IMG/VR virus record: IMGVR_UViG_3300020200_000004
DNA: 64,000 bases
Source of the DNA: a virus
Lineage: Duplodnaviria > Heunggongvirae > Uroviricota > Caudoviricetes
Direction: 5' to 3' (one strand)
Part shown: piece after piece, positions 17,143-53,233 of the stretch
Position numbering within the stretch: position 1 is the stretch's first letter
How the letters are laid out: the number at the start of each line of letters is the position of its first letter
Notes under the pieces: generated by a model
What the model was told of the DNA's origin: nothing
Databases searched by the model: none
What the model saw: only the letters and a program-made list of their open reading frames with translations
Program-made: the position numbers and the translations under genes

Positions 17143-17178
17143 GTGTCGTTTTATTCTTACGGGAATGGAAGGATGCAC
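17143..17178 (+). promoter_or_regulatory. Conserved 36-nt hairpin element, copy 2 (spans the start codon of the IDO-like gene)
   Basis: gtgtcgttttattcttacgggaatggaaggatgcac; 32 of 36 nt identical to 5327-5362. Confidence 0.5.
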
Positions 17179-19457: not shown

Positions 19458-21386
19458 ATGTTATTTTATGGTATTGTTGCTGGAATTTGCTTTGTAGCTT
19501 TTCTGATCTTTGTATGGCTTACTACAAGATACATACCTAATAACAAAATAGGTATTGTAGAGAAACTATGGTCCAGAAAAGGATCATTAGGCGAAGGTGA
19601 AATTGTTGCCTTGAAAGGTGAAATTGTTGCCTTGAAAGGTGAAGCTGGATTCCAACCAGAAGTCCTAAGAGGCGGCATTCACTTTGGTTATTGGAGATGG
19701 CAATATGCTGTCCACAAACGCAATTTGATTACTATCAGGCAAGGCAAGATTGGTTATGTATTCTCTAGAGCCGGACAGCCTTTATCTGCAACTCAAACAT
19801 TATGTAAATATGTTGAATGTAATAACTTCCAGAACGTAAAAGCTTTTCTTTCTAATGGCGGTCAGAAAGGTCGTCAAAGAGCAATTTTGCGTGAAGGTGT
19901 ATATGTTATCAACACAGCTATTTTATCTGTAATCACTGAACGGATTGTTTATTCAATGATTACGGATAAAGATGTTAACTTAAATGAATGGCAAAGTCAG
20001 CTAGCAGCAGTAAAAGGTTTTGATCCTATTATCATTGGTCATTCTTCCAATGAATCAGATGATATTGGCATTGTGACTACTCATGATGGTCCTGCTTTGG
20101 AAGATGGAGAAATCATTGCACCGGCAGTAGGCACATCTTCTTCTGATTCAAATTACCATAATAATTACCAAGATATTGAAGCGTTCTTAAGAGCGGGTGG
20201 CAGAAGAGGTTTGCAATATGCCACACTTTTAGATGGTACTTATTTCATTAATAGGTGGTTTGCTACTGTTGAACATATTAAAAAGGCAGTTGTTCCTATA
20301 GGTTCAGTAGGAGTTGTAGTAAGCTATTATGGGCGTCAAGGGGCTGATACTTCTGGAACTCAATTTAGGCATGGCGAAAGGGTACATCAAGGCGAAAAGG
20401 GTGTTTGGGAATCTACTCTTGGGCCTGGCAAGTATCCCTTTAACAATTATGCAGGCCAGATCATTTTAGTACCTACTACCAATTTCGTGCTGCATTGGGT
20501 GACAGGCAAGAGTGAATCGCACAAATATGATGAAAGTTTAAAGTCTATAGATTTAATTACTAAAGATGCTTATGAACCACTTTTGCCTTTAAGTGTGGTG
20601 GTGCATATTGATTACCAGAAAGCACCTAGCGTTATTCAAAGATTTGGTGATGTTAAGCAGCTTATTACGCAGACTTTAGACCCATTGTTAAGTGCTTATT
20701 TCAGGGACGTGGCACATAAAAAGACTATGCTTGAGTTAATCCATTCTAGAGACGAAATTCAAGCGCAAGCCAGGAAGGAATTGCAGGCTAAGTTTTCCCA
20801 ATTTGATATTGAATGTGTTGATGTTTTAATTGGTCGCCCCGAATCCTATTCAGATGATGGCAAAATTGAGAATTTACTTGAGCAATTGAGGTTAAGGCAA
20901 TTAAGTCTTGAACAAATTGAGACTTATAATAAGCAAAAGCAAGCAGCAACTACAGAACAGACTTTAAATGAAGCTTTGGCCCATGCTGCTATGCAAAAGG
21001 AATTAACGGGTTCTAAGATTCATATTGAGATTACTTCTAATAATGCCGAAGCTGATCTTGCTAAGGCCAAGAAAGAGGCAGAAAAGACGATTGTTATTGC
21101 AAAAGCAGATAGCGAAAAGGCTAAATTGCAAGGTGTTGGTGATAGTTCTAAAATTCAATTGGTAGGTAGTAGTGAAGCTGAGGTTTTGCAGAAGAAGATT
21201 GCTTCTTTTGGTGATTCTAAACTTTATGCTTTGTCCGTGATTGCTGAAATGCTTTCTAATAGCAAGCAACCTTTAGTGCCTTCTACTATGTTGGGTGGCA
21301 ATAATTCTAATACATTATTGACTGCTTTAATGTCCTTAATGGTTAATGAAAAATTAAGTGTTTCTCCACAAGAGCCTCAAATTTAA
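19458..21386 (+). CDS. SPFH/band-7 flotillin-like membrane protein
   Basis: N-terminal TM helix, SPFH-like core (IGIVEKLWS...QPEVLRGGIHF), C-terminal Ala/Lys/Glu-rich coiled coil like YqiK/flotillin; contains a 2x21-bp tandem repeat (GEIVALK x2). Confidence 0.6.
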   Translation: MLFYGIVAGICFVAFLIFVWLTTRYIPNNKIGIVEKLWSRKGSLGEGEIVALKGEIVALKGEAGFQPEVLRGGIHFGYWRWQYAVHKRNLITIRQGKIGYVFSRAGQPLSATQTLCKYVECNNFQNVKAFLSNGGQKGRQRAILREGVYVINTAILSVITERIVYSMITDKDVNLNEWQSQLAAVKGFDPIIIGHSSNESDDIGIVTTHDGPALEDGEIIAPAVGTSSSDSNYHNNYQDIEAFLRAGGRRGLQYATLLDGTYFINRWFATVEHIKKAVVPIGSVGVVVSYYGRQGADTSGTQFRHGERVHQGEKGVWESTLGPGKYPFNNYAGQIILVPTTNFVLHWVTGKSESHKYDESLKSIDLITKDAYEPLLPLSVVVHIDYQKAPSVIQRFGDVKQLITQTLDPLLSAYFRDVAHKKTMLELIHSRDEIQAQARKELQAKFSQFDIECVDVLIGRPESYSDDGKIENLLEQLRLRQLSLEQIETYNKQKQAATTEQTLNEALAHAAMQKELTGSKIHIEITSNNAEADLAKAKKEAEKTIVIAKADSEKAKLQGVGDSSKIQLVGSSEAEVLQKKIASFGDSKLYALSVIAEMLSNSKQPLVPSTMLGGNNSNTLLTALMSLMVNEKLSVSPQEPQI

Positions 21387-24869: not shown

Positions 24870-26042
24870 ATGCTTGTAGCAGAACGACATTATATACAAG
24901 AAACACTTGAAATTGTCCGACTATGTACATTAAGCAAAGAACTTTACAATAAATGCAATTTCTTGATGAGGCAAGCATGGTTTATAAATGAAAAATTACC
25001 TAATATAAATTTGCTTGTTCGAGAGACAAAGCCATTAGACTGTTACAAAAACCTTCACAACACCAAAACAGCAGCACAAACAATACGTAAATGTCTTGTA
25101 GATTGGGCAAACTTCCTCAAAACCCTGAAAGCATACAAGAAAGACCCAACAAAATTCAAAACTAGACCTAAACCGCCTTATTATAAAAATAAACTCACAC
25201 AAATTATATTCTTTAATGAAACTATCAAGAAAAGACCATTGAAACAAGATGTAATTACCCCAACGAACAATCTATTTTCAATTAAAAGTGACATTAAAGA
25301 ATTTAAGCAAGTAATGATTACTCCTAAAACATTTGGTTTTATAGTAGACATTCAATATGAAAAAGAAGTCAAGAAAGTAAAAGTAAGCAAGAATAGGTTT
25401 GCCTGTATAGATGTTGGTGTAAATAATTTAGCTACGATAACTTCAAACCAACTGGAGCATCCCATATTGGTTAATGGTCGCATACTAAAAAGCATCAATA
25501 GATTCTATAATAAAAAACCTAATAAGAATAATAGTAGGAAACGTTATTTCCGTATTGAGAATTATTTCCATCATGCTTCTAAATTTATAATTGATTTATG
25601 TATTAAACATAAAATTGGCAAAATCATTATCGGTAAGAATGATGGTTGGAAGCAATTTTCTAAAATACGAAAAGTACAAAACCAAAATTTTCAATATATT
25701 CCTTTTTATAAATTTTTAGATAAGATTAAGTATAAAGCAACATTAGCGGGCATTGAAGTTATATTTACTGAAGAATCATATACAAGTAAAGCAAGTTTCC
25801 TTGACCATGATTCAATACCAACTTATAAAAAAGGCAATAAACCTCCTACTTTTTCTGGTAAAAGAGATAAAGGAATGTATAGAACATTTAGACCTATTCA
25901 TGCTGACGTGAATGGAAGTTTAAACATAGGATGTAAAGTATTCGGGGATAAAGTCTACAAGGCTTTCCCTGATAGGAGCATTGCCGCAATGCCAGTACGA
26001 ATTAATCCATTGAAGATTTTTGCATATAACAGCAAAAATTAG
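24870..26042 (+). CDS. tnpB: TnpB-like protein (OrfB_IS605 family), apparently nuclease-dead (TldR-like)
   Basis: 390 aa. RuvC-I FACIDVGVNNLA and RuvC-III HADVNGSLNIGCK are present. The RuvC-II position reads KIIIGKNDGW (Gly where the catalytic Glu is expected). The zinc-finger cysteines are absent (ESYTSKASFLDHDS...). Confidence 0.65.
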   Translation: MLVAERHYIQETLEIVRLCTLSKELYNKCNFLMRQAWFINEKLPNINLLVRETKPLDCYKNLHNTKTAAQTIRKCLVDWANFLKTLKAYKKDPTKFKTRPKPPYYKNKLTQIIFFNETIKKRPLKQDVITPTNNLFSIKSDIKEFKQVMITPKTFGFIVDIQYEKEVKKVKVSKNRFACIDVGVNNLATITSNQLEHPILVNGRILKSINRFYNKKPNKNNSRKRYFRIENYFHHASKFIIDLCIKHKIGKIIIGKNDGWKQFSKIRKVQNQNFQYIPFYKFLDKIKYKATLAGIEVIFTEESYTSKASFLDHDSIPTYKKGNKPPTFSGKRDKGMYRTFRPIHADVNGSLNIGCKVFGDKVYKAFPDRSIAAMPVRINPLKIFAYNSKN

Positions 26043-35231: not shown

Positions 35232-35924
35232 ATGTTGAATGAAAACAAGATGGACCTTAATTTATTTTGCAATAATCCAATATCAGCGATAAGGGCTATT
35301 TTAGCATGGCATTGGGGCAATCCTTTAATTGGCGAAGGTAATCTTTCTAAAGACTTAGTAAGGGGATTACGTCTTACTAATAAATTTTGCAATGGTGATA
35401 CCGATAATTTTACTCAATGGGATTTTTGGATTTTTCTTGATGAAAATGGAAAGAAAAGATGTAGCAAATGTCAAATAACAAAAGATACAGAAGATTTTAA
35501 AACTTCCAATAATTCCAAAGATGGTTACAAATCTGCTTGTATGAGATGTGAAAAAAATAGTGATTTGCTGAGCCAATATGGTATAACTTTGAAGCAATAT
35601 GAGGCAATAGAAAAGAATCAAAATCATTGTTGTGCTATATGTGAATCAAAAGACTCAAAAATTCCTAGAAAACATAGAAAAACTAAAATAGATGTATTTT
35701 GTGTAGACCATGACCACGATACAGGCGAAATAAGAGGTTTACTTTGTTTTAATTGTAATACTGGATTAGGGCAGTTTAAAGATTCTGCCGATGTTCTGGG
35801 AAACGCTTTGTGTTATTTGAGGAAGTTTAATTGTACCAAGAACGAGAAAAGTTCAACGAACAATCAAATAGGAAATACAAATGATTTTGGTACAGAACCC
35901 ATTGAATTTGGAAAAGTCTGCTGA
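35232..35924 (+). CDS. Recombination endonuclease VII-family protein (C-terminal EndoVII domain)
   Basis: HCCAICES...VDHDHDTGEIRGLLCFNCNTGLG matches the EndoVII CxxC...DHDH..G..RGLLC..CN..LG signature. Confidence 0.7.
   Translation: MLNENKMDLNLFCNNPISAIRAILAWHWGNPLIGEGNLSKDLVRGLRLTNKFCNGDTDNFTQWDFWIFLDENGKKRCSKCQITKDTEDFKTSNNSKDGYKSACMRCEKNSDLLSQYGITLKQYEAIEKNQNHCCAICESKDSKIPRKHRKTKIDVFCVDHDHDTGEIRGLLCFNCNTGLGQFKDSADVLGNALCYLRKFNCTKNEKSSTNNQIGNTNDFGTEPIEFGKVC
35827..35840 (+). promoter_or_regulatory. Conserved motif TTAATTGTACCAAG, copy 6 (inside the 3' end of the EndoVII ORF)
   Basis: Exact 14-mer 40 nt upstream of ATG 35881. Confidence 0.45.
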
Positions 35925-37920
35925 TGTTAAGCCATCTACTTTTAGGATTAAAGCGTCTCAAAAAGCTTTTGCGATCTTGTCGTCTGGTTTATATTCAGAT
36001 AAGGTGTCATCGACCATCCGTGAATTGTCTACCAATGCCGCTGATGCCCATATCGCTGCTGGCAACAAGGAATCTTTTACCGTTCATCTGCCCAATACCC
36101 TTGAACCATTTTTCTCCGTAAAGGACAATGGCACTGGACTTTCCGAACATCACCTTAATACCCTTTATACAACCTATTTTGAATCAGATAAAACTCATTC
36201 AAATGACTTTACTGGTTGCTTGGGATTGGGCAGTAAGAGTCCATTTAGCTATACCGATCAATTCACCGTTGAAAGCCGATTCAATGGCAACAAGTATACC
36301 TATAGTTGCTTCATTGATCAGGATGGATTGCCTTCTATCGCCAAGATGGGTGAAGAAGTTACTGAAGAATCCAACGGTCTAGAAGTTAAGTTTGCTGTTA
36401 AAAGTTCTGATTTCTGGGAATTTCAGAATAAGGCATCAAATATTCTATCTTGGTTTAATCCTCAGCCTAATGTTGTTGGCGTTGCTGGGTTTGAACTTAC
36501 GCAACGAGAATACATTAGGAAAACTGATAAGTATGCTCTCCGCAAGGAAAAGCATTATGGTGATGCGAGCCGATTGATCATGGGTAATGTTGCTTATAAG
36601 CTGTCTACCTACAGTCTTGGCAACAAGGTTAGTTTGGATGAACTTGACCGGCAGATTCTAGATTGGGGCTGTGAAATCTTTGTCCCAATTGGCACTGTTG
36701 AAGTAACTGCAAACCGTGAAGATATTACTTATACTGAAAATAGTGCTAAGGTCATTAAGGAATGTCTTGCTGAAGCTGTCAAGGATGTTAGGGGAGAAAT
36801 TGATAACATGATAGCTTCCGCTCCTACAATTTGGGAAGCTAGGCGTGTTCTCCATGATTCTCACCATTCCATCATTGGCAAGATTAAGAATTTAACTTCT
36901 GCTACTTGGAATGGTCAGGAAATTCATAGTTATGTAAGTTCTGCCAAGTGGAATGAAAAGAACCCTGACAAGGAAATTAATATTCAGTTTTTGCGACGTA
37001 AGAAGGAACGTTTCGCAAAGAGCAATGGGCATAGCCACATTCACGCTGATAACAAGCCCATTTATGTGAATGACTTGGGGCATGGTGGTTACACAAGGGT
37101 TTTGCATGATTTAAATAAGAAACGCACAGATGAAGCTTACTTGCTGCAAAACAATAACGTAAGTTTCTTGGAAGAAGCTGGACTAAAAGAAATTGTAATT
37201 CGTGCTAGTTCTTTACCTAAGCCTGAAAGCAAGCGTTCTTATGTTCCACGTCGCAAGGGAGTAAGGGCACAGCTTAATCGTTGGGTTGAATCTCATTCCT
37301 ATAAAAAAGAAGCTTGTTCATATTGGCAACCAGCTGACGTTGATTTGGAACAAGGTGGCATTTATGTAGAAATGTCTTACTATAAATATACGTTGTTTGG
37401 TAATGAAGGTAATAGCCCAGACGGTTTGGAGTCTACCATCAGCGCTTTGTCGGCTTTCCATGAATCTGAGGATGGAAAATTGGAAGTTTTTGGAATTCGT
37501 TCGGCTGATAAGAAGATTCTGGAAAAGATGGATAACTGGATTAGCCTTGACGATTATATCAAGGAAGTTGTTGAAGCTAATGAATATCTTGATGCCACTA
37601 TCAAGATGAATAATGAATGGACTCATTATCGTGACAATCTTGCCGAAGCTTTCTTTAATGATGATTTGAGTGAAAAAACCTTATTTGGCCGTTATGTGGA
37701 ATATTGCAAAAAGGCTTACAAGGCTCATTCCAGTGAAAGTCGGGCATATATTAGACTGTGCGGTTTGGTTAATAAGAACATTGGAACTGGAACTAAGTTA
37801 AAGGAAATGCGGGATGAATTGCAGGCCAAGTATCCTTTGATTAGTTTTCTTAGTTCTTACGATACTCCTTACAACAGTAAAACTTTTAAGGCAGCACTTT
37901 TGAAATATGTGAAGGAGTAA
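35881..37920 (+). CDS. GHKL-family ATPase (Hsp90-like N-terminal ATP-binding domain)
   Basis: 679 aa; N-box IRELSTNAADAH, G1 box VKDNGTGLS, G2-like GCLGLGSKSPFSY (compare Hsp90 ELISNASDA / DTGIGMT / GQFGVGFYSAF). Confidence 0.5.
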   Translation: MILVQNPLNLEKSADVKPSTFRIKASQKAFAILSSGLYSDKVSSTIRELSTNAADAHIAAGNKESFTVHLPNTLEPFFSVKDNGTGLSEHHLNTLYTTYFESDKTHSNDFTGCLGLGSKSPFSYTDQFTVESRFNGNKYTYSCFIDQDGLPSIAKMGEEVTEESNGLEVKFAVKSSDFWEFQNKASNILSWFNPQPNVVGVAGFELTQREYIRKTDKYALRKEKHYGDASRLIMGNVAYKLSTYSLGNKVSLDELDRQILDWGCEIFVPIGTVEVTANREDITYTENSAKVIKECLAEAVKDVRGEIDNMIASAPTIWEARRVLHDSHHSIIGKIKNLTSATWNGQEIHSYVSSAKWNEKNPDKEINIQFLRRKKERFAKSNGHSHIHADNKPIYVNDLGHGGYTRVLHDLNKKRTDEAYLLQNNNVSFLEEAGLKEIVIRASSLPKPESKRSYVPRRKGVRAQLNRWVESHSYKKEACSYWQPADVDLEQGGIYVEMSYYKYTLFGNEGNSPDGLESTISALSAFHESEDGKLEVFGIRSADKKILEKMDNWISLDDYIKEVVEANEYLDATIKMNNEWTHYRDNLAEAFFNDDLSEKTLFGRYVEYCKKAYKAHSSESRAYIRLCGLVNKNIGTGTKLKEMRDELQAKYPLISFLSSYDTPYNSKTFKAALLKYVKE

Positions 37921-37922
37921 AC

Positions 37923-38162
37923 ATGGAGTTATATTTACTTTGGATTAGCTGGGGTGATTATGATGATAAGGAAGATCATTTATTGGGAGTGTATAGTTCC
38001 CTAGATGAACGTCAAGCTGCTATTAAGCGATATGAAAGTAATGGTAATTGTTGGATATTCAAGGATGGAAAGCCTTTTGCCTCTGATGCACAATATACTT
38101 TTCAGAAAACAGAAATAAACAAGGACATTTATCTTGAAAAACCTCTTGAAAAACCTAATTAA
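37923..38162 (+). CDS. Hypothetical protein (79 aa)
   Basis: ORF. Confidence 0.3.
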   Translation: MELYLLWISWGDYDDKEDHLLGVYSSLDERQAAIKRYESNGNCWIFKDGKPFASDAQYTFQKTEINKDIYLEKPLEKPN

Positions 38163-38448
38163 AGCTATAAAATGTTTGAAGAAGTATCGTGACCAACTTG
38201 GCAAAAAGGATTTAACTTATGCTGATCAAGTGATGAAAGAACTTCAAAATCACATCGTCAGTTTGTCCAGGCATTTAACCTTCATGTTGGAGTTTGATCA
38301 ACATGCTACAGACCTTAATCTTTATGAAAAGTCTGAGGTTGCAGCTAAGAATATTGTAAAGGCTACCAAGCTTTACCGTGAAAGGACTGGTGTTGGACTT
38401 ACCGAGGCACATAAAGCTGTTCAACAATATGTAAAAGATCGAGACTAA
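38134..38448 (+). CDS. Hypothetical protein (104 aa)
   Basis: ORF. Confidence 0.3.
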   Translation: MKNLLKNLIKAIKCLKKYRDQLGKKDLTYADQVMKELQNHIVSLSRHLTFMLEFDQHATDLNLYEKSEVAAKNIVKATKLYRERTGVGLTEAHKAVQQYVKDRD

Positions 38449-38690
38449 TGATGAAACCACAATGGTTATACTCTGAGTGTTCTCTATTTATCAGGAAAAT
38501 ACTTAAAGCTAAAACTGATGTTGAACGAACGGCAACGGCTCGAAAATGGGCTGATTGGCTTGAAGCAAGAGGAGATAGAGAATATGTTGAGTGGCTTCGT
38601 CATCCAAAACTTTCCTGGGAGACAAAAAACGGCTATGTAGTATGGCAAGTGCATCCTTGATCTAACAGTGGTCATGGGTGCAGTAGTAGG

Positions 38691-38972
38691 GTGGATAATG
38701 ACTGGTGGACGATTTATTATCCAACTGAAGAATGGACCAATAGTTCCCACGCTGAAAGTTTATTGAAAGCTTGGATTAAAAATGGTGTTGGTTTAGAGAA
38801 ATATCCTTGGACTAAGATTGTTTCAGAAAGAATTGGTTTAATTAATAAGTGGAATCAATTAGTTGAAGAGTGCAAAGACGAAAAGAACTTGCAGCATATA
38901 ATGAAGAACAAGATATTAAAGAATTTGAAAGGCTTAAAAAAAAGTTTGGTGATGGTGGCGTTTGGATTTTAG
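38691..38972 (+). CDS. Hypothetical protein (93 aa)
   Basis: ORF. Confidence 0.3.
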   Translation: MDNDWWTIYYPTEEWTNSSHAESLLKAWIKNGVGLEKYPWTKIVSERIGLINKWNQLVEECKDEKNLQHIMKNKILKNLKGLKKSLVMVAFGF

Positions 38973-38991
38973 TTAAGCCAAAGGGGTAATA

Positions 38992-39300
38992 ATGAAATTC
39001 TATACTGCCGAAAAGATTATGGAATTGTTTTGTTCTCCCACAAGAGAATTTGTTATTACTACAATCTCCGACAATGGGGCAATTAGAGTTTGGAATGGTA
39101 TTGATTTTGAGTTTCCTAATGATGATCCTTGGGGATACAAGAATTTAAAAGCTGCTCAAAGGGTTGCCAATAAGATTGAAAAAGACAAAGGTATAAAGAC
39201 TAAAGTTTGTTTTTGGGTTCATTCTGAAGATGATTATAAGCCAATTGAAAAATACGCTAAAATGACCGGTAAACGCTGGGAAGGGTGTCCGACGCAATAG
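38992..39300 (+). CDS. Small hypothetical protein translationally coupled to the cas12-like gene (candidate accessory)
   Basis: 102 aa; its stop TAG at 39298-39300 overlaps taGcATG with the start of the 1020-aa effector gene. Confidence 0.4.
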   Translation: MKFYTAEKIMELFCSPTREFVITTISDNGAIRVWNGIDFEFPNDDPWGYKNLKAAQRVANKIEKDKGIKTKVCFWVHSEDDYKPIEKYAKMTGKRWEGCPTQ

Positions 39301-39301
39301 C

Positions 39302-42300
39302 ATGTCGCAATTTAAGACAGTTGAGAATTTTAAGGATATTTTAATGTTAAAAGAAAAAACTACTTTGCGATCCTATCAGCTGCTTCTATTAGATAATCAT
39401 GATTTAGTAGAAAAGACGATAGATGTTTATACAAAAGGAGCTTCTGCTTGGTTGGACTTTTGGCTTACTGTTTTGGGCGGTATAGAATTTGAGATGATTC
39501 CATTATCTCCTCTTAGCAGTTATTGTATTACTAAAAAATTAAAGAGGAAATCCCAAGAAGATAAAGAAATATTTATTCCTATTAGCGAAGAAGCTTTATT
39601 GTTTGGCTGTTGGTTTTCTTTAGAAACGAATAGCAATTCGCCATTCATTATTTCTGTTCAAGATGTTTGGAACAAGTTCAAATCTTATCTGCCGAATAAT
39701 GTGAAAATAAGCTACAATTGGGAAAGAACTATCAAAGCACAAATTAATTCCTTTGTGTCTGAGAATACTTGTTGGGTAGATAGAAGAAAAGCATTTCAAG
39801 ACCTATCATTTAAAATTAATGTTGCTGATCTTGTTTGTAAAAAAGATTTTTGGCTTAATAAAGATGTGGATAGCAAATTGTATATGAGAAGTGCCTTGGG
39901 GCAATGGTGGAATGATGGAACAAAATCAGATTGGGTTAATCTTAAAATTAAATGTGAACAGTCTATAAAATTTATCGAACAAGAATCAGATATCAGAAAT
40001 GCAAAAACAAAAATTCTACAATCTCTTGGATTGCCAGATATAGCAGAAGCTAAAGAAATTGGCAAAGCTTATGGCAAAAAAGGAAAGCCTTCCAGAGTGT
40101 TTATTAAATTGGAAAAATTAACAGAAGATACTACCAAAGACCAATTGGTTAAGGAATTTCAAGAAGAAATTGTAAACGCAGAAGAACATGTTGCTTTTAA
40201 GCGTTGTCCCTGGCATGCGAAAATTAGAGAAAACATTGAAAAAGCAATAGGTGTAAGTTATTTTAATGAAAAAGGTAATAGTAGTCAAAATAATTTTGGA
40301 GAAATGGGCAATCTTGCTCTTGAAAAAATTAAAAGTTGGAAATCTAATTTTTTTAATGTCTTAGGAGAAAGATATCATAACTGTAAATCTGATTTCCATG
40401 ATTCAGAGGTAAAAGAATGGTTTGAAGAATACAAAAAAACAAACAAACAACTTAGAAATAGCAGCCTTTCAGGACTTGAAAAAGTATTTGATTTACTAGA
40501 TAACAAGTCTTTTGAAGATGCTATTAAAGAAGCCCAAAAATCCTACAACATTCTTGGAAGAAGATTTGGAGACGCTAACTTTTTCAACTTTTTAGGCAAT
40601 AAAATTCAGTCCAGAAAGGACAAAGATTGGTTGAAATTAATACGAGAATATGATAATTGGGATAATGTAAATTACAAATTTATAAATCATAAAAGTCCAA
40701 GACTTAAGCATTTTGGGGATGATCACTTAGCCACTCCTAGATTTGGGGAGTCAAGACCAACAGGCAATATCAAAAGCACAACTGGAAATAGTCACTCAAT
40801 TACATTGAATGTTTTCGATGGCAAATCATTCAAACTGACTAAAATTAATTCTGCTTGCAAAAGATTGTCTAATGAAATTAAAGATAATCAATCAATTAGA
40901 CAGACTAAGTTATCTGGAAAAATCTTTGAAAACTATCGAATTCTTCCTAAGAGTTTAGTTAAAAAGGGTGGACTTAAACTTTGTAAACAAAATGATAAAT
41001 GGTATGCCCATCTAACAGTCAATTTGCCAGTATTTGAAAAAGCTTCATGGCAAAAATTGATGAAAACCGGCACCATAATAATGAGTATAGACCCTGGTAT
41101 TAGAAGTTCTATATCATATACTATATTTGAAATATTTGAATGTGATCGAGATACAGATTATTTTATTGAAAATGGCATTACTCATGTGAAAATACATTCA
41201 TGGGAAGATCATAGTGGTACTAAGTTTAAAGTGCCTCATAATAATTTGTGGGTTAAATTGTTGGAATGGGGACATATTCGTGATCTACAACCTATTGGCG
41301 AAAATGGTTATCGTCAGTGCAGATTAGATGGTGGAACAAACACCAATTTAGACTCAGAAGAAATAGAATTTTGGAAATATCTTTTAATAACTGGTGTTGA
41401 GCAAAAAGACATGCCTGATCCTTTGCCAAAAAGGTCTGAATATTCTAGAATTATTGCAAATTTAATTAACAAGTGGTATACAAACAAATCAAAAGAAATT
41501 ACAGATAAGGTTAAACAACTAAATATTAATGATCCTGTAGAGTTTTCAAAAACTTTACAACATGTAAGAAAAGAAAGCGATTTATCATCAGAATTATTGA
41601 TAAAGGCGTCCCAAATATTATTTGTAAATAATTCAGATAAAATTGGGAGAGGCGGGTTATCCTATGCTAGAATTAAGATGCTCCAAACACTTTCTTCTGC
41701 TTGTAATAAATTCTTAAAAGTTAAAGAAAATAATGCAGAAATTATTGAATTTCAGAATTTTCTTAGAAAGAAAATTAATGCCATAAGAACGGAACGAGTA
41801 AGAATTACTGTAAACAAAGTTTTGCATGAAGCTGTCAATAACAAAGTAAATCTAATTCTATATGAAAATACCCAACTAAAATCTTCTTCCAGTTCCCCCA
41901 GAGGTCTTAATAGAAGTATAACATCCTGGTGCCCGTCAAAAGTAATCGAAGAATTGAAAAAACAAATAGATTTGTTGCCAATTTCTATAATGGGAGTAAA
42001 CTCTGCTTATACGTCTCATAACTGTTTTGTAACTTGCAAGAAAAAATGTCGTTATGATAAAGTTCATTTAGATGATCTTAATATTGAGCCTTGGAAAGAA
42101 AGAATAACCGATATTTTTACAAAAAAACAATTAAGCTTAACTGATTGTTTGTTGAAAAAAGGTTGGGAAAATTTCCTGAAAGAAAATGACTTGATGAGCT
42201 ACAAACAAATACCTGAATTTGTTAAAAACAAAAAAGCTTTTTGTTTAGTTCCCTCCAGGACAGGAAAATTGTTTGTTACAGAAATTGGAGAATTGAATGC

Positions 42301-42364
42301 TGATATCGCCGCTGCTGCTACAATAGGAATGAAAGGTCTTGCAATAATCCTATCCAAAGCTTAA
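39302..42364 (+). CDS. cas12: Cas12-family (type V) CRISPR effector-like protein, RuvC-only single effector; subtype not assignable by eye
   Basis: 1020 aa. C-terminal RuvC split in TnpB/Cas12 order: RuvC-I IIMSIDPGIRSS (D597), RuvC-II NLILYENTQLKS (E855), Cys/His cluster HNCFVTCKKKC (906-916), RuvC-III GELNADIAAAATIGMKGL (D1001). About 590-aa N-terminal helical region. The gene lies immediately upstream of a co-oriented CRISPR array. Confidence 0.75.
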   Translation: MSQFKTVENFKDILMLKEKTTLRSYQLLLLDNHDLVEKTIDVYTKGASAWLDFWLTVLGGIEFEMIPLSPLSSYCITKKLKRKSQEDKEIFIPISEEALLFGCWFSLETNSNSPFIISVQDVWNKFKSYLPNNVKISYNWERTIKAQINSFVSENTCWVDRRKAFQDLSFKINVADLVCKKDFWLNKDVDSKLYMRSALGQWWNDGTKSDWVNLKIKCEQSIKFIEQESDIRNAKTKILQSLGLPDIAEAKEIGKAYGKKGKPSRVFIKLEKLTEDTTKDQLVKEFQEEIVNAEEHVAFKRCPWHAKIRENIEKAIGVSYFNEKGNSSQNNFGEMGNLALEKIKSWKSNFFNVLGERYHNCKSDFHDSEVKEWFEEYKKTNKQLRNSSLSGLEKVFDLLDNKSFEDAIKEAQKSYNILGRRFGDANFFNFLGNKIQSRKDKDWLKLIREYDNWDNVNYKFINHKSPRLKHFGDDHLATPRFGESRPTGNIKSTTGNSHSITLNVFDGKSFKLTKINSACKRLSNEIKDNQSIRQTKLSGKIFENYRILPKSLVKKGGLKLCKQNDKWYAHLTVNLPVFEKASWQKLMKTGTIIMSIDPGIRSSISYTIFEIFECDRDTDYFIENGITHVKIHSWEDHSGTKFKVPHNNLWVKLLEWGHIRDLQPIGENGYRQCRLDGGTNTNLDSEEIEFWKYLLITGVEQKDMPDPLPKRSEYSRIIANLINKWYTNKSKEITDKVKQLNINDPVEFSKTLQHVRKESDLSSELLIKASQILFVNNSDKIGRGGLSYARIKMLQTLSSACNKFLKVKENNAEIIEFQNFLRKKINAIRTERVRITVNKVLHEAVNNKVNLILYENTQLKSSSSSPRGLNRSITSWCPSKVIEELKKQIDLLPISIMGVNSAYTSHNCFVTCKKKCRYDKVHLDDLNIEPWKERITDIFTKKQLSLTDCLLKKGWENFLKENDLMSYKQIPEFVKNKKAFCLVPSRTGKLFVTEIGELNADIAAAATIGMKGLAIILSKA

Positions 42365-42451
42365 AATGGCTCTGTTCGTTGATCTTTGACATCTTATTTT
42401 TAAGTTTATTTTAAACAGAAAGCAAACTGTTATCAGTTTTTCTTTCTGTTC

Positions 42452-42489
42452 AGTCTCTCGCCCTTATTTAAAAATAAGGGCGAGAGACT
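42452..42489 (+). other. Perfect 15-bp-stem hairpin between the cas12-like gene and the CRISPR array (terminator-like but without a U tract)
   Basis: agtctctcgccctta-tttaaaaa-taagggcgagagact. Confidence 0.45.
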
Positions 42490-42713
42490 ATGTGGTGAAA
42501 AACGTTGGAAAAGAAAATTTTTCTTAAGTCCTGATGAATTAAGCTTTTGCGATAAAGTTATCCTGTGCTGCCTATCGCTCGTTTTAAGTCTTTATTTGAA
42601 AAAGGTTTATGGCATCAAACCAATAAAATTCGGATATGCAGTTGTTCTAAAGTAATTGCCTCTCGCATACTTGTTTGTAAGTTGTTTTATTAAAAGGCTT
42701 TATGCAAATGAGC
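42490..42713 (+). promoter_or_regulatory. AT-rich CRISPR leader (putative)
   Basis: About 220 nt AT-rich sequence directly upstream of the first, non-degenerate repeat; the degenerate repeat is at the far end of the array. Confidence 0.4.
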
Positions 42714-44534
42714 GTTGCAATAGATTAAAACAATGTGCTGTTATTGGCACTTCGGCGTCATCGTCGGCATGGCCGCCCTGGTCCTGGTTGCAATAGATTA
42801 AAACAATGTGCTGTTATTGGCACACCAATGGCCAGTTTCAGAAAAGCACTTTTTCAATGTTGCAATAGATTAAAACAATGTGCTGTTATTGGCACAAATA
42901 AAACCAGCCAGTAACCGCTATATCCGCAAAAGTTGCAATAGATTAAAACAATGTGCTGTTATTGGCACTATTTGATTGTACATTGCATTACAATCGCCGT
43001 TTTTGTTGCAATAGATTAAAACAATGTGCTGTTATTGGCACCCAAAGGCCAGTCTCCGCCTTTGGCGCTCAAGAGCGTTGCAATAGATTAAAACAATGTG
43101 CTGTTATTGGCACCGATACAATGAAAGTAATCACGTGCACGATGGCAAGGTTGCAATAGATTAAAACAATGTGCTGTTATTGGCACGTCAAATATGGAGT
43201 AGGATGAAGGGCGAATTTTGGAGTTGCAATAGATTAAAACAATGTGCTGTTATTGGCACTGGAGGCTAAGGACTAACAAGAAGAAACTAGGAATGGTTGC
43301 AATAGATTAAAACAATGTGCTGTTATTGGCACGGAGTCCAGATACCATAGTTAATTCGTTGCAATAGATTAAAACAATGTGCTGTTATTGGCACACTAAT
43401 CAGCCAATCTTCTTAGGTGTTGATCTTTCGTTGCAATAGATTAAAACAATGTGCTGTTATTGGCACCGAACCGCCCTTGCCGCCGCCGTACACCTTAATG
43501 GTGTTGCAATAGATTAAAACAATGTGCTGTTATTGGCACTATCCGCAAAAAAAGAATGTGTCAATGCAAGGGTATTGTTGCAATAGATTAAAACAATGTG
43601 CTGTTATTGGCACCCAGCTTGGCAATCTGTCCTTCAATGTGCGTTCTTTGTTGCAATAGATTAAAACAATGTGCTGTTATTGGCACTATAGTGTATGCAC
43701 CGACTAATATATAATAGTAGCGTTGCAATAGATTAAAACAATGTGCTGTTATTGGCACTTTTTGGTCCTCGTCGTGGCCGTACACGTGATCGAGGTTGCA
43801 ATAGATTAAAACAATGTGCTGTTATTGGCACTCCAGTTATTGCTTGTTACTGAGAGAAGGGCTGGGCAGCGTTGCAATAGATTAAAACAATGTGCTGTTA
43901 TTGGCACTATAGCAATCGATTATCTCCGCATCGTCCAGTAGATGTTGCAATAGATTAAAACAATGTGCTGTTATTGGCACCTGCGCAGCGTAGAAGGTTG
44001 TTTCGTCGATGACCTGGTTGCAATAGATTAAAACAATGTGCTGTTATTGGCACAAACGTGACAAAGAGGTTGCAATAGATTAAAACAATGTGCTGTTATT
44101 GGCACATGAATTCGCCAGTGGCGACATGTCGGTCCGTGTCTGGTTGCAATAGATTAAAACAATGTGCTGTTATTGGCACTTGATGCTCTGCCCCAGACTT
44201 TCGTGGAAATCCGTGTTGCAATAGATTAAAACAATGTGCTGTTATTGGCACGGCATTTGCTTAGCCACCTCCGCACTCTTACACTTCTGTTGCAATAGAT
44301 TAAAACAATGTGCTGTTATTGGCACAATGTTCCAGACTTGCTACTACCTAATATGTTTCCGTTGCAATAGATTAAAACAATGTGCTGTTATTGGCACGTG
44401 CGAAGGTTGCCGGACTGCTTATGTTGCAATAGATTAAAACAATGTGCTGTTATTGGCACTGGAACGCACTTTTTCTTTTTTGCGATGCAGCAAGGAAGTT
44501 GCAATAGATTAAAACAATGTGCTGTTATTAGCAC
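42714..44534 (+). CRISPR. CRISPR array: 26 direct repeats of 37 bp (GTTGCAATAGATTAAAACAATGTGCTGTTATTGGCAC), 25 spacers
   Basis: Most spacers 35-37 nt; outliers 39, 38, 25, 25 and 15 nt. Repeat 4 carries a 1-nt deletion. The last repeat (44498-44534) is degenerate (..TTAGCAC). A 3' stem GTGC-N8-GCAC sits in each repeat next to the spacer. Same orientation as the cas12-like gene. Confidence 0.95.
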
Positions 44535-44670
44535 TCCAAGCAGCAACATTCCTGATCGTTTAGCTGAAATTTATAGTAAAGATGATCCTGTGCCGCCTCA
44601 AGTATGGGAAGCAGTTAAAGAAGTCCGAAAAGGAATGGGCATGATGTGGCATTACGCAGGAGATTAATTT

Positions 44671-45186
44671 ATGTCATTGATTTTAGCTAAGTCTGCTCCT
44701 AAACTGGAGGTTAAAACTTTTGGTATTGTGCCAATTCCTTCATTAGAAGATGAATTGAAGCACCCCAACATATGGATTCGTACCAGAGATTCTAAAGAAG
44801 TAGATTTTGAAATAGATTTTATTGATTTTAATCAAATATTGGATTGTTATTTTGGATTTAAACCATCGGCAGACATATTTTCCATTGACGAAGAGGAGAT
44901 GGAATTTTGGTTCGGTAGTAATAATTGGGCAGAAAATTGCATTCTATTCAAATTCAAAACCAATGACGCTAATGTATTTGCCATTGATGAAACAGATTTC
45001 AAAGTAATGGCACAATATGTTTATACCAATACAGATTTAATAGCAAATGACGTAAGATTAAATTATTTGGGAAGGCATAAAAAGAAGTCAGAAAAACTAA
45101 AAAGAGGGCAAGATTTATTTGATTGGTTGCTTTCTTTGAAATTGGTCGATGGTTTTAATACAAAAAACAAAAGGCTTGCAAAATAA
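44671..45186 (+). CDS. Hypothetical protein (171 aa)
   Basis: First ORF after the array. Confidence 0.4.
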   Translation: MSLILAKSAPKLEVKTFGIVPIPSLEDELKHPNIWIRTRDSKEVDFEIDFIDFNQILDCYFGFKPSADIFSIDEEEMEFWFGSNNWAENCILFKFKTNDANVFAIDETDFKVMAQYVYTNTDLIANDVRLNYLGRHKKKSEKLKRGQDLFDWLLSLKLVDGFNTKNKRLAK

Positions 45187-45187
45187 C

Positions 45188-45904
45188 ATGACATTTTGGC
45201 AAGAAGCAAAGGGGTTGGCCAAGTCTTTATGGTTCGACCCTTTTTGGTATTTGATGTTATTTTTGATAACATTTGGGCCGGTTCTTAGTCATGGAGAATT
45301 TCCTTGGTGGACTTGGCTATGGATTCCAGGGTCTATTCTGGTTATGTTCTTTATTATATTGTGCAAGCAAAGATATGGCTACCGTTGGAATAAGGAAGAG
45401 GAAGATGCCAAAGACCCTATGCGGTATAGCGTGAAAAAAGTAAAGTTTAGCATGGAAAAAGGTGGAAATTCTGTGAATACTGAAATTATTGTTAGATATG
45501 CCAGAAAAGAAGACGCACATACTTTATATCAACTTTATAATGGCGATTGGTCTAACTTTATAATGTTGGGGCATAGTTTTTATGAATATGAAGAAATGAT
45601 ATTGGCTTCTCATGTTAAAGTAATTGGGGCTTTTAGAGAAGATGCGTTTCTTGAAATTAAAACTTCGACAGCAGTTGGAATTTTAATTGCAGTTGATGTA
45701 GTTTGCTGGGGGTATTTGGATATAATTTATGTTGATGAAGAATATAGAAAATTAGGTGTTGGCAAGAGAATGATAGATTTACTTATAGCATCTAATCCCA
45801 AATGGAAAAAACTGGAAGCTGGGGATATAAATGAGAATGAGAAGATAAAAGAAATGGGTTTTCAGTACGTTGAACCTTTAAATTGGTGCGTGAAAAGCTT
45901 ATGA
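45188..45904 (+). CDS. Membrane-anchored GNAT-family N-acetyltransferase
   Basis: Two N-terminal TM helices (LWFDPFWYLMLFLITFGPVL / LWIPGSILVMFFIILC) then GNAT motif A IIYVDEEYRKLGVGKRMIDLL. Confidence 0.55.
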   Translation: MTFWQEAKGLAKSLWFDPFWYLMLFLITFGPVLSHGEFPWWTWLWIPGSILVMFFIILCKQRYGYRWNKEEEDAKDPMRYSVKKVKFSMEKGGNSVNTEIIVRYARKEDAHTLYQLYNGDWSNFIMLGHSFYEYEEMILASHVKVIGAFREDAFLEIKTSTAVGILIAVDVVCWGYLDIIYVDEEYRKLGVGKRMIDLLIASNPKWKKLEAGDINENEKIKEMGFQYVEPLNWCVKSL

Positions 45905-46077
45905 TAACAAGTGATGATCCTCTTACTGCAAAATTGATAAAGCTTTTGAACCGGGCACATGATATAATATGGCTCAATGCTTTAGAACCTATTTATAAAG
46001 AAGAGGTTTTGTCACAAGCAGAAATTGAAGCTTTTCTGATGGAAGTTGAGGAAGTAATATATAAGCCAAACCCAAAA

Positions 46078-46151
46078 GCCCCTGTAGTTTAATTGTGCAA
46101 AACGTGCTACTTTAGATAGCTAAGATGTGGGTTCGAATCCTGCCAGGGGCG
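46078..46151 (+). tRNA. tRNA with predicted anticodon UUA (ochre/UAA-suppressor-type)
   Basis: Cloverleaf by hand: acceptor gcccctg/caggggc, D-stem gttt/aaac, anticodon stem gcta/tagc with loop cTTTAga (U33, anticodon TTA, R37), variable loop aagat, T-arm gtggg-ttcgaat-cctgc. One t-t mismatch at the top of the anticodon stem. Confidence 0.5.
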
Positions 46152-46180
46152 TTAGTTTCATTGCATATTTACTATGATAT

Positions 46181-46651
46181 GTGATGAAGAAAACAAAACC
46201 AACACAACTTAATGAACAAATATTACAAAAAATAATTCCAAATTGTATTTCTTACAGCGAAGTGTTTAGGCAATTAGGTATGGTTCCTGCTGGTGCCAAT
46301 TATAGAACCTTGCATAAGTATGTTAAATTATGGAATATTGATGTATCTCACATTGAGGCACGTACTTGGCATAAACATATAAGTAATGGGAGGGGCAGAC
46401 CTTTAGAAGAAATTTTGGTTAAAGGCAGATTCGAGACGGGACACATTCTAAAAAAAAGACTTATAGCAGCAGGAATCAAAAAACATGCTTGCGAAGGATG
46501 TGGTTTAACTGAATGGCGTGGCAAGTCAATTCCTTTAGAAGTTCACCATAAAGACGGGGATAGGAATAACAACTTGCTTGTAAGTCTTGTGATGAAAAAA
46601 ACCGAAAAACAAAAATTTCTTGGCCATCCTGTGAAGAACTTCAATCAATGA
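46181..46651 (+). CDS. HNH homing endonuclease; the reading frame appears broken near 46578, and the C-terminal part continues in another frame to about 46750
   Basis: CEGCG...LEVHHKDGDRNNNL (HNH core). After NNLL the +1 frame reads CKSCDEKNRKT...AVGRQLGVSDRAVHKRLKNH, the usual ..NLQLLCKSC.. plus HTH tail of these enzymes. Confidence 0.6.
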   Translation: MMKKTKPTQLNEQILQKIIPNCISYSEVFRQLGMVPAGANYRTLHKYVKLWNIDVSHIEARTWHKHISNGRGRPLEEILVKGRFETGHILKKRLIAAGIKKHACEGCGLTEWRGKSIPLEVHHKDGDRNNNLLVSLVMKKTEKQKFLGHPVKNFNQ

Positions 46652-46732
46652 TAAAATCTTCTTCATTTTTAGCTGTTGGAAGGCAATTAGGAGTTTCAGA
46701 TAGGGCAGTTCATAAGCGGTTAAAGAATCATT

Positions 46733-47401
46733 GTGGAATCAAAAATGAGTAAAATTAAAGTTTTAACTATAGAAGAAGCTATGTGGAATATAGGCCAATA
46801 TAAACCTAGCAAAGTCAGACTTCCAAAGAAACTAGTTGAAATTGGAAAACTGAAAATCCATGCAGACACACAATATTACGATGCCTTTGCTAATTATTAT
46901 AGCAGGCTAAAAACTCAATTGCCACATGATAAGTTCTGGCAAATAATTGAATTTCTAAGAAAGCTAATCGCAAATCGTGGTTTCACCTATGACAAATTAA
47001 AAACTTCCATAGATGAATTGTTCCGGCTAACTGCAACTGGAGAAAGCGAACACCCTGAAGGTGGTTTTGATGGTCCACATGTTGCATATAATTTCAAGGA
47101 CTTATTGCAGTTCTGCTTTACATATGAAGGAATTTCCGATAAAATAGACCAGAAGCTTGATGACTTTTCTCTTGGCAGTGATGATTCTAGAGGCGATTTG
47201 ATGGATTCACTGCCCTTGGCTGGTGTAAAAGTGTACGAAAATATACTAAATGGCACAGTCAAGAATGAGCAAGATTTAGAAAAAGAATTGAAGTCATTGG
47301 CTAAAAAATGGTATGAGTTTATCCGAAATGGCGAAAACTATGTGTGGATGACATTAAAGGAAGAAGCGGCAAGTAGAGCCTTAAATCTAATGATGGAGTA
47401 A
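46733..47401 (+). CDS. Hypothetical protein (222 aa)
   Basis: ORF. Confidence 0.4.
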   Translation: MESKMSKIKVLTIEEAMWNIGQYKPSKVRLPKKLVEIGKLKIHADTQYYDAFANYYSRLKTQLPHDKFWQIIEFLRKLIANRGFTYDKLKTSIDELFRLTATGESEHPEGGFDGPHVAYNFKDLLQFCFTYEGISDKIDQKLDDFSLGSDDSRGDLMDSLPLAGVKVYENILNGTVKNEQDLEKELKSLAKKWYEFIRNGENYVWMTLKEEAASRALNLMME

Positions 47402-47402
47402 C

Positions 47403-48095
47403 ATGAAAGATTATCTAAGAACAATTAACTTGGGGTAGGGAGTCGGTGAATCTGGCAAGCAAGCATGTTGGATGAGCGCTCTTTCTGCTCATTTGGGTGG
47501 GGAATGGACCGATACATTAGATTGCGTTGATCCTATCATTAATAGCCTTTGCATAATTATTAATGATCTTTATTATATGGACAATAAGGGCAGAACCAAT
47601 GACATTATGAAATTTGGTTTGTTTGCTCCATTGGGAACTAAAGGCACTTGGAAAGATACTGAGAAAAGACTATTTAAACTTGCGGATATTGCTATAAGAA
47701 AATGGGCAGCAACCGTGAGTTTTCATACAGGATTTATACAAGATGAAAAATTCCTAAGAAATTTGGATGAAATTGTAGATTTGCCTAGTCTTCGTAAAGC
47801 TAGAAATGATATTGAAATTGCAGCTTGTTATTTAATGAGTGAATTGGACATAATAATTTATCATATAAAAGGCATTTTGATAATCCACGAAACTTGCAAG
47901 AGAGAAATGATAGCTAATTTATATAAGTTTACTGGAATTTTGATAGATCATATGGGTAGAAACGTTCTCGTAAAAGATCATTTATATTCTGCACTAAGAG
48001 AACTAATTGAAATGGGTCCACATGCACCAGAAGAACCTGAATATCCTGCTTGTGGTATTCCAAAGTTTCAAGAACTAGTAGGTATTAAAACATAA
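47403..48095 (+). CDS. Paralog family A member with an in-frame TAG at codon 12 (pseudogene, internal restart at 47472, or stop-codon readthrough)
   Basis: MKDYLRTINLG-TAG-GVGESGKQACWMSALSAHLGGEWTDTLDCVDPIINS... The paralogs have Ile/Phe at the TAG position. C-terminus LIEMGPHAPEEPEYPACGIPKFQELVGI is shared with 48392..48943. Confidence 0.45.
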
Positions 48096-52309: not shown

Positions 52310-53233
52310 ATGAATGATAAGGTAAAAGGAGCATTGTGGGGAGGAGTTGTGGGAGATTCAGCTGGGATGTGCGCCGAATTCCTTCCGAGAGGGAGTTTTC
52401 CACCAATTACTGGATATAGAAGCGGTGGGCCATTCAATTTAGAAAAAGGGGCATTCACCGATGACACTTCTATGGCCTTGTGTTTGGCTGATAGCATTGC
52501 CACTGTTGGTTGGGACTTGAAAGATCAATTGAAACGGTATGTAGATTGGTATGAAAATGGAAAATATTCAGTAAATGGTAAATGTTTTGATATTGGCTGT
52601 ACAACTAGGCATGCTTTAAATGAATTTATTCGTACTGGAGAAGTTAATGCAGACCTAGACGAAAATGCTTCTGGCAATGGTTGCATAATGAGACTTTCTG
52701 CCGTTCCAGCCTATTATAGATATCTTTTCCCTCACTATTTGCCTGAATTAATGGTAAAGGCCGAAGAGTCTAGTGCAACAACTCACGGAAGCGAACAATG
52801 CAAATCTAGTTGTCGTTATATGACTGCAATTATTTGTGCTTTTATTCATGGAGATTATACAAAAGATGAAGTTTTATCAACAAATTGGAGAATACTAAAA
52901 GAAATTGAAAACTTAAAGCCTTTGCATCCTTTAGTTAAAACTATTGCAAATGGCAGTTTTAAAACAAAAACTTTAGAAGAAATTGATTCATCAGGATGGG
53001 TGATTGCTACGCTTGAAGCGGCAATTTATTCATTTTATCATTCGAATAGTTTTGAAGAAGCAGTATTTCGTTCTTGCAACATGGGATTAGATGCAGATAC
53101 GGTAGGTTGCGTTACAGGCCAAATTGCTGGTGCGTATTATGGTTTTGATGCTATCCCCAAGGAACTAATTGAAGGTTTGAGTAGAAAAGACATGCTGGAA
53201 GAATATTTCGGCAAGTTATATAAAGGAAACTAA
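52310..53233 (+). CDS. ADP-ribosylglycohydrolase (ARH/DraG family)
   Basis: GALWGGVVGDSAGM and GAFTDDTSMALCLADS N-terminal signatures; C-terminal GLDADTVGCVTGQIAGAYYG. Confidence 0.8.
   Translation: MNDKVKGALWGGVVGDSAGMCAEFLPRGSFPPITGYRSGGPFNLEKGAFTDDTSMALCLADSIATVGWDLKDQLKRYVDWYENGKYSVNGKCFDIGCTTRHALNEFIRTGEVNADLDENASGNGCIMRLSAVPAYYRYLFPHYLPELMVKAEESSATTHGSEQCKSSCRYMTAIICAFIHGDYTKDEVLSTNWRILKEIENLKPLHPLVKTIANGSFKTKTLEEIDSSGWVIATLEAAIYSFYHSNSFEEAVFRSCNMGLDADTVGCVTGQIAGAYYGFDAIPKELIEGLSRKDMLEEYFGKLYKGN

Follow-up and report, generated by a model that had tools for sequence, protein, structure and literature searches.

GC-rich spacers in a phage-borne type V-I (Cas12i) CRISPR array and a perfect match to a co-occurring planctomycete

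Huge phages are known to encode class 2 CRISPR systems of their own, including type V-I and CasPhi. Almost all of these systems lack Cas1, Cas2 and Cas4, their arrays are compact, with a median of six repeats, and their spacers target competing phages as well as bacterial chromosomes from the same sample, the targeted bacteria being presumed hosts (Al-Shayeb et al. 2020, PMC7162821). Here we analysed a locus of this kind in a stretch of 64,000 nucleotides of viral DNA (Caudoviricetes, IMG/VR record IMGVR_UViG_3300020200_000004), called the window in the following, in which a CRISPR array at 42714-44534 (+) lies next to the gene of a Cas12i-family effector. The spacers of this array come from at least two pools of different guanine and cytosine (GC) content, and the first spacer is a perfect copy of a piece of a planctomycete gene found in the phage's own metagenome. 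Like the systems of the huge phages, the locus has a large phage as its carrier, no acquisition genes in the window, an effector with its catalytic residues kept and a match to a bacterium of the same sample (PMC7162821). On the other hand, the array is much longer than those (26 repeats, compared with a median of 6), the identified target is a sensor kinase, whereas transcription and translation genes were highlighted there, and the putative host is about 30 GC points away from the phage. Phage-borne type V-I systems with host-targeting spacers have thus already been described (PMC7162821), and the advance made here is incremental, not conceptual. What is distinctive is that an unusually long array and a very divergent effector come together with a protospacer adjacent motif (PAM) that natural targets reveal, and with a planctomycete as putative host, 30 GC points away.

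A comparison can also be made with Vibrio phage ICP1, in which Seed et al. in 2013 reportedly described a complete type I-F system of class 1, with Cas1/Cas2-3, directed against the chromosomal anti-phage island PLE. Both cases would involve a lytic phage using its own CRISPR-Cas system against DNA that resides in the host cell. In contrast to ICP1, the locus in the window has a class 2 effector alone, and the single chromosomal target identified for it is a core gene of an ordinary kind.

Spacer composition and the targets of two spacers

By exact calculation, the 37-nt repeat occurs 26 times in the array, with 25 spacers in between. We calculated the GC content of each spacer and compared it with that of the window, which is 35.5% (a phage mean of 35.4% was used in the spacer comparison) and agrees with the roughly 35% given in a preliminary description of this DNA. 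Seven of the spacers, all on the (+) strand, have a GC content of at least 55%: spacer 1 (42751-42786, 0.694), spacer 5 (43042-43076, 0.629), spacer 11 (43467-43502, 0.639), spacer 15 (43759-43794, 0.556), spacer 18 (43981-44016, 0.556), spacer 20 (44106-44142, 0.568) and the truncated spacer 24 (44398-44422, 0.560). The same seven had been placed at 56-69% by hand count, and the exact range of 0.556-0.694 bears this out. The accompanying statement that about half of the spacers are GC-rich was too generous, as the fraction is 7/25 (28%), or 10/25 if spacers with at least 50% GC are counted. Similarly, the remaining spacers do not stay within 31-40% but span 0.31-0.51; for example, spacer 6 has 0.44, spacer 13 has 0.47, and spacers 16, 21 and 22 have 0.51.

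The difference between the spacers and the genome that encodes them is highly significant. A GC content of at least 55.5% occurs in only 0.96% of the 36-mers that the remainder of the window contains, which gives a binomial P = 3e-9 for at least 7 of 25 spacers, and spacers 1, 5 and 11 each lie above 99.98% of the phage 36-mers. With a mean of 39.1%, the 15 spacers below 50% GC lie slightly above the phage, whose mean is 35.4% (t-test p = 0.006). Matches of the spacers to the window itself were not found with up to 7 mismatches. Neither pure self-targeting nor a lack of compositional difference describes this array. The GC-rich spacers are dispersed along the array, and a runs test gave no sign of clustering. 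Several of them have a codon-like periodicity in GC content at third positions (GC3); in spacer 1, frame +0 reads FGVIVGMAALVL with GC3 = 1.00. This periodicity indicates that the source was coding DNA of a high-GC genome.

We also considered whether spacers 11 and 15 could be two guides against homologous sites. In register they are identical at 19 of 36 positions, which is at chance level for about 3300 comparisons, and the idea was dropped. The two spacers have the stretch GCCGTACAC in common, and their reverse frames read TIKVYGGG… and LDHVYGHD….

The target of spacer 1, the leader-proximal one, could be traced. We searched it as a wobble-masked pattern over 185,579 species, with one genome for each (spacer 1 is the only one scanned in this way), and obtained a single match, VGYC01000006.1, with 36/36 identical positions. 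This is a contig of [quoted passage not shown], a metagenome-assembled genome (MAG), and corresponds to Ga0194131_10000260 from the phage's own metagenome. The window is 100% identical to the Joint Genome Institute (JGI) contig Ga0194131_10000472 (68 kb) of sample 3300020193, which belongs to a depth-profile study of Lake Tanganyika (PMC8245535). The planctomycete contig has 65% GC (62-68% in the local DNA), and the protospacer is preceded on the spacer-sense strand by ...CTGTTC|, that is, by a TTC PAM. The targeted gene (P0041) encodes a HAMP-HisKA-HATPase_c sensor histidine kinase of 455/472 aa, and spacer 1 equals its sense strand, coding for FGVIVGMAALVL. Since a CRISPR RNA (crRNA) with the sense sequence could not pair with the mRNA, the target would have to be DNA. 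The neighbours of the kinase gene are leuS (leucyl-tRNA synthetase), a DUF1501 gene that is typical of planctomycetes, and rpsA (ribosomal protein S1); this neighbourhood argues that the kinase belongs to the core chromosome and not to a mobile element. The possibility raised in the preliminary description, that a phage-borne array might be aimed at a host chromosome, is thus supported by a match in the core chromosome of a probable host.

Orthologues of the kinase number in the hundreds at 58-70% identity, and the source databases name Gemmataceae or Planctomycetes for them. Ten contigs that were assembled independently, from JGI samples and from SRA runs, carry the protospacer and its PAM without any difference; four of them come from JGI samples of Lake Tanganyika. 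The exact kinase allele keeps its synteny wherever these contigs extend far enough. The closest orthologue, with 85% identity, differs at 2 of the 12 residues of the site, which indicates that the guide is specific for one population.

For four spacers (1, 5, 11 and 15) we scanned JGI metagenome contigs including the phage's own sample. This collection is without the window's own contig, so that a lack of self-matches there is uninformative. A union pattern of spacers 1 and 5 recovered the planctomycete contig, which served as a positive control for the coverage of the sample. Spacer 5 matches positions 930-964 of Ga0194131_10177693 from the same sample, 35/35, an unclassified orphan contig of 1022 bp with 51% GC. 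Its protospacer is preceded by CATTTC|, again a TTC PAM, and the flanks are not CRISPR repeats. A search for relatives of the sole complete open reading frame (ORF) of this contig (72 aa) found only itself. TTC makes up 1.35% and 1.57% of the positions in the two targets, and two TTC PAMs are expected by chance with a probability of about 2e-4. Both natural protospacers are thus preceded by TTC (2/2), a number that does not define the full PAM. With a 65% GC planctomycete and a 51% GC contig as targets, the array does sample at least two kinds of foreign DNA, one of them GC-rich, as had been proposed.

We then looked at the other spacers. Those of at least 20 nt, concatenated and compared using blastn (word size 11, E up to 1), gave no match in 50,697 reference phage genomes or 72,556 plasmids; this includes spacers 18, 20 and 24. 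Using IUPAC union patterns of paired spacers, we were not able to find exact protospacers in IMG/VR for spacers 1, 5, 6, 10, 11, 15, 16, 18, 20, 21, 22, 23 and 25, nor was the repeat found in IMG/VR.

The Cas12i-family effector and its array

The locus is a stand-alone type V-I (Cas12i) system, with an effector, a leader and an array, and with no acquisition genes in the window. The effector gene (39302-42364, +, 31% GC) has a longest ORF of 1020 aa; in the public gene calls the protein (P0001) begins 14 codons later and has 1006 aa. PADLOC assigns it to Cas12i (E = 4e-24 and 3e-23) and to Cas12b (E = 9e-17), in each case by the C-terminal half only. In a word-indexed search of 5.8 billion proteins the effector matched nothing but itself, and the 50,697 deposited phage genomes are without a homologue. 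When 1.84 billion representatives were searched exhaustively with HMMER, 39 relatives were obtained, all of about 1000-1100 aa, the best with 40% and 30% identity. A search with the single sequence does not reach Cas12i2. A profile of 25 relatives, on the other hand, aligns with Cas12i2 (PDB 6LTP) from end to end with E = 1.7e-62, profile positions 5-982 corresponding to chain residues 4-1029. In the alignment of 25 sequences, D597 (DLGxR), E855 (EDL) and D1001 (SDxxAA) are invariant or nearly so, and judging by these motifs they constitute an intact RuvC triad (I/II/III). The protein thus resembles Cas12i2 (PDB 6LTP/6LTU) in being a single effector, about 1000-1100 aa long, in aligning with it over the whole length and in having a C-terminal RuvC triad. 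Compared with known Cas12i proteins it is very divergent (40% identity to the nearest relative), and its gene is phage-borne with 31% GC.

The repeat of the array is GTTGCAATAGATTAAAACAATGTGCTGTTATTGGCAC, with 35.1% GC, and the spacers are mostly 35-39 nt long. Three of them are truncated: spacer 9 (43333-43357, 25 nt), spacer 19 (44054-44068, 15 nt) and spacer 24 (25 nt at the position given above), all on the (+) strand. In an independent ENA assembly, the first 13 spacers agree with these in identity and order, and spacer 9 has 25 nt there as well, so that its shortness is no error of assembly. The truncated spacers may go back to recombination or deletion in arrays without acquisition machinery. 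The 25 non-terminal repeats are all identical and AT-rich like the phage. The last repeat (44498-44534, +) has one substitution (…ATTAGCAC), which turns GGCAC into AGCAC and marks the old, leader-distal end. At the other end, an AT-rich stretch of 349 bp with 33% GC (42365-42713, +) lies between the effector gene and the first repeat and is a putative leader by its position and composition; there is weak evidence of a promoter-like site near it, at 42339-42367. From the degenerate repeat being the last one, from the AT-rich leader beside the effector gene and from the position of the PAM, we conclude that the array is transcribed on the (+) strand and that spacer 1 is the newest. An ORF of 95 aa (44380-44667, +) has its start within the last spacers and repeat and extends beyond the array; the public gene calls have a remnant of 25 aa in its place. 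At this site the start of a gene may have received the array as an insertion, or the array may abut it.

The repeat is predicted to fold into a 3'-terminal hairpin, GUGCUG/UUAU/UGGCAC. Outside the array, no complement to the repeat of at least 10 nt was found within 36000-48000 (up to ~6 kb from the array), and thus no anti-repeat. Cas1, Cas2 and Cas4 had no match among the 82 ORFs of the window or in the fetched loci of five relatives of the effector; beyond the window, about 2 kb of additional phage sequence could be inspected for them, which holds an epimerase. The 36-37-nt repeat whose 3' hairpin ends with GGCAC next to the spacer, the lack of an anti-repeat and the lack of adjacent Cas1/2/4 genes are all as in type V-I. 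The 5' T-rich PAM, TTC in two natural protospacers, fits the TTN PAM that Yan et al. are said to have reported for Cas12i in 2019. In summary, the full-length homology of the effector, the RuvC triad, the 3' hairpin without an anti-repeat, the T-rich PAM and the missing adaptation module all place the locus in type V-I. Natural sequences give its native PAM (TTC) and its crRNA repeat directly, which may be of interest for the mining of compact nucleases that do not need a tracrRNA (trans-activating crRNA).

Three relatives of the effector adjoin arrays of their own, namely the loci L009 (repeat GTCGTCACACCGAAACAACTAGTGCCGGACTTGGCAC), L012 (repeat GTTGCAATGCCTAATCAAATTGTGTCGATATGGACAC) and L011, which has a mini-array of 3 repeats. 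The 3'-terminal hairpin of the repeat is common to the array in the window and to those of relatives (including P0003 and P0012). The contig of L009, whose repeat is similar, has 59% GC. That of L012 has 36.5% GC and its spacers have 29-54%, that is, they are richer in GC than their carrier, and several are truncated (10-28 nt). Both features, spacers that are more GC-rich than the carrier and truncated spacers, may be general in this small effector family. One run, SRR16108669, holds both the closest relative of the effector (P0002 of locus L008, 40% identity) and the exact kinase allele targeted by spacer 1; L008 may come from a second phage with a Cas12i gene, living alongside this planctomycete.

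Origin of the GC-rich spacers

Where do the GC-rich spacers come from? We consider it fairly probable that the phage carries a type V-I array with a GC-rich pool of spacers which includes the chromosome of a co-occurring, Gemmataceae-like planctomycete, and that this bacterium is the likely host. The host assignment draws on the co-occurrence of phage and planctomycete in sample 3300020193 and on the match of spacer 1. The array transcript would be read from the (+) strand, and by analogy with Cas12i the effector would process its own crRNAs, each with the 3' repeat hairpin followed by the spacer, and its RuvC site would nick or cut double-stranded DNA next to a 5'-TTC/TTN PAM. The GC-rich pool (56-69%, possibly with the three spacers of 51% in addition) would include the planctomycete chromosome. 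The low-GC pool (31-47%) is similar to the phage itself in composition, and we infer that its probable sources are competing phages or mobile elements. In the simplest reading, the planctomycete is the host or was so until recently, and pieces of its DNA may have been captured as spacers during infection, with the acquisition proteins supplied in trans by the host or encoded elsewhere in the phage genome. Cas12i would then be aimed at the host chromosome and at least one other resident element, the target of spacer 5. The host-directed guides could have been selected, for example for host shut-off or for disabling a sensor kinase, or they could be tolerated by-products.

Several observations weigh against this explanation. 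Targets were traced for 2 of the 25 spacers, and 1 of the 25 is located on the planctomycete chromosome. For spacers 11 and 15 the JGI metagenome contigs contain no exact match, even in the same sample, and the low-GC spacers have no phage match among the reference phages and plasmids or, for a subset of them, in IMG/VR. A gap of 30 GC points between a phage and its putative host is unusual. Wherever an assembly reaches the array it is identical, and acquisition genes are missing from the window, so that there is no sign of ongoing acquisition. The three truncated spacers and the degenerate terminal repeat hint at some decay. Finally, escape variants at the protospacer of spacer 1 are absent from the 10 contigs, which were chosen for an identical protein; this could reflect a lack of selective pressure from targeting.

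If the link between phage and planctomycete is true, similarity in GC content predicts hosts poorly in this phage lineage, and the locus adds a well-documented case of a phage that aims a class 2 nuclease at the chromosome of its host. In any case there is a concrete phage-host lead here, namely that one guide perfectly reproduces part of a core gene, next to a PAM, in a planctomycete found together with the phage. Planctomycetes are, to our knowledge, a phylum with almost no known phages. A bolder version of the same reading seems to us possible, and should be taken as tentative: an AT-rich relative of the huge phages would infect a Gemmataceae-like planctomycete of 65% GC, the host-directed guides would have been selected, the divergent Cas12i would act as a programmable nuclease for host takeover, and the GC-rich third of the array would be its arsenal, the newest guide being aimed at a membrane sensor kinase. 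Were this so, the locus would be among the first cases in which sequence links a planctomycete phage to its host, with an extreme compositional mismatch.

Alternatively, the planctomycete is maybe not the host at all. The GC-rich spacers could stem from a cellular type V-I array that the phage recombined with or captured, or they could have been acquired in a low-GC host from DNA that had entered by transformation, transduction or conjugation. Such an origin would go well with the distance in composition (35% in the phage, 65% in the planctomycete) and with the absence of acquisition genes from the window. Cas12i relatives with similar repeats in GC-rich contigs, such as L009 with 59% GC, are possible cellular donors, and the 51% GC target of spacer 5 means that not all of the GC-rich spacers are derived from the planctomycete. 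However, the GC-rich spacers do not form a single block but are spread over the array including its newest position, and the 25 non-terminal repeats are identical and as AT-rich as the phage. Moreover, spacer 1 matches a contemporary local population at 36/36 positions with the correct PAM, and transferred DNA is unlikely to have brought along a kinase gene of the core chromosome. We think that this alternative is rather unlikely.

Somewhat less likely again, in our view, is that the array is a decaying relic with fossil spacers, those from the host being neutral by-products of degraded host DNA. Here the signs of decay listed above would find a natural explanation, that is, the missing Cas1/2/4 genes in the window, an array that is identical in independent assemblies, three spacers of 15-25 nt and a degenerate last repeat, together with the truncated spacers in the L012 array and the lack of escape mutations at the protospacer of spacer 1. 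A relic is difficult to reconcile with an intact effector ORF and a conserved RuvC triad, with 25 of 26 repeats being identical, and with an array of 26 repeats where phage arrays have a median of 6 (PMC7162821). In addition, both protospacers that were found are perfect and have a TTC PAM, so that the guides would be fully competent.

One could also suppose that all GC-rich spacers target mobile elements such as plasmids, prophages or phages, and that the kinase gene lies on an integrated element. The target of spacer 5, a small orphan contig with short ORFs, is compatible with a mobile element, and phage arrays commonly target competitors (PMC7162821). For the kinase this is contradicted by the leuS, DUF1501 and rpsA flanks, by the same synteny in several samples and by orthologues across Gemmataceae MAGs; besides, no spacer matched the reference phages or plasmids, and none of the 13 spacers searched in IMG/VR matched there. 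We regard this explanation as very improbable. Lastly, that the GC excess is an artefact of chance, of a PAM-linked bias or of assembly chimeras, the spacers in fact coming from DNA of phage-like composition, can practically be dismissed: the GC content of 36-mers is noisy (standard deviation of about 8 points) and the three 51% and four ~56% spacers are individually ambiguous, but the excess has P = 3e-9 with three spacers beyond 99.98% of the phage 36-mers, two spacers were traced to non-phage contigs without repeat flanks, and the array is reproduced in an independent assembly.

The carrier phage and other genes of the window

Besides the contig mentioned above, the effector occurs on contigs of up to 112 kb in the ENA assembly, a further JGI sample and an SRA run. 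Nearly all genes of the window are on one strand. Matches to PHROG and Pfam families include rIIA (35881-37920), rIIB, endonuclease VII, NUDIX, HNH, a sigma-70-like factor and two TnpB proteins, and the CRISPR locus lies in the rIIA/rIIB early region, just downstream of rIIA. Among deposited phages, the best match of rIIA is LR756511.1, an uncultured phage of 595 kb, with 37% identity over the full length. At least eleven proteins of the window have roughly syntenic homologues, with 30-57% identity, within 32 kb of this phage (locus L027, 119783-151864). LR756511.1 has no homologue of the Cas12i effector, which, given the synteny, suggests that the CRISPR locus is an insertion specific to the lineage of the window. 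Judging by its gene content, the carrier is a lytic phage of large size with relatives in a published lineage of huge phages, and the array is indeed phage-borne, as the preliminary description had assumed. Given this synteny, we have dropped the label of a classical T4-like phage in favour of a large phage that encodes rIIA and rIIB.

TnpB proteins are ancestral relatives of Cas12. The two TnpB/IS605-OrfB-like genes of the window, which have a Cas12f-like TNB domain, are at 480-1706 (-) and 24870-26042 (+), and a TnpB gene is also found near the effector relative of L011. About 1.5 kb downstream of the array, at 46078-46151 (+), ARAGORN predicts a suppressor tRNA with the anticodon UUA, which reads the UAA stop codon; it is the sole tRNA in the window, and the genes of the window look intact under the standard code. 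The accessory region encodes a sigma-70 region-2 protein (4258-5220, +), an M50 peptidase similar to site-2 proteases (7195-8241, +) and an SPFH/Band-7 protein of 642 aa (19458-21386, +). Further genes of the window encode a DarG-like macrodomain protein (PADLOC E = 2e-57) and an ADP-ribosylglycohydrolase (52310-53233). An unusual auxiliary gene for a phage is a homologue of indoleamine 2,3-dioxygenase at 17165-18283 (+) (Pfam IDO, E = 5e-58).

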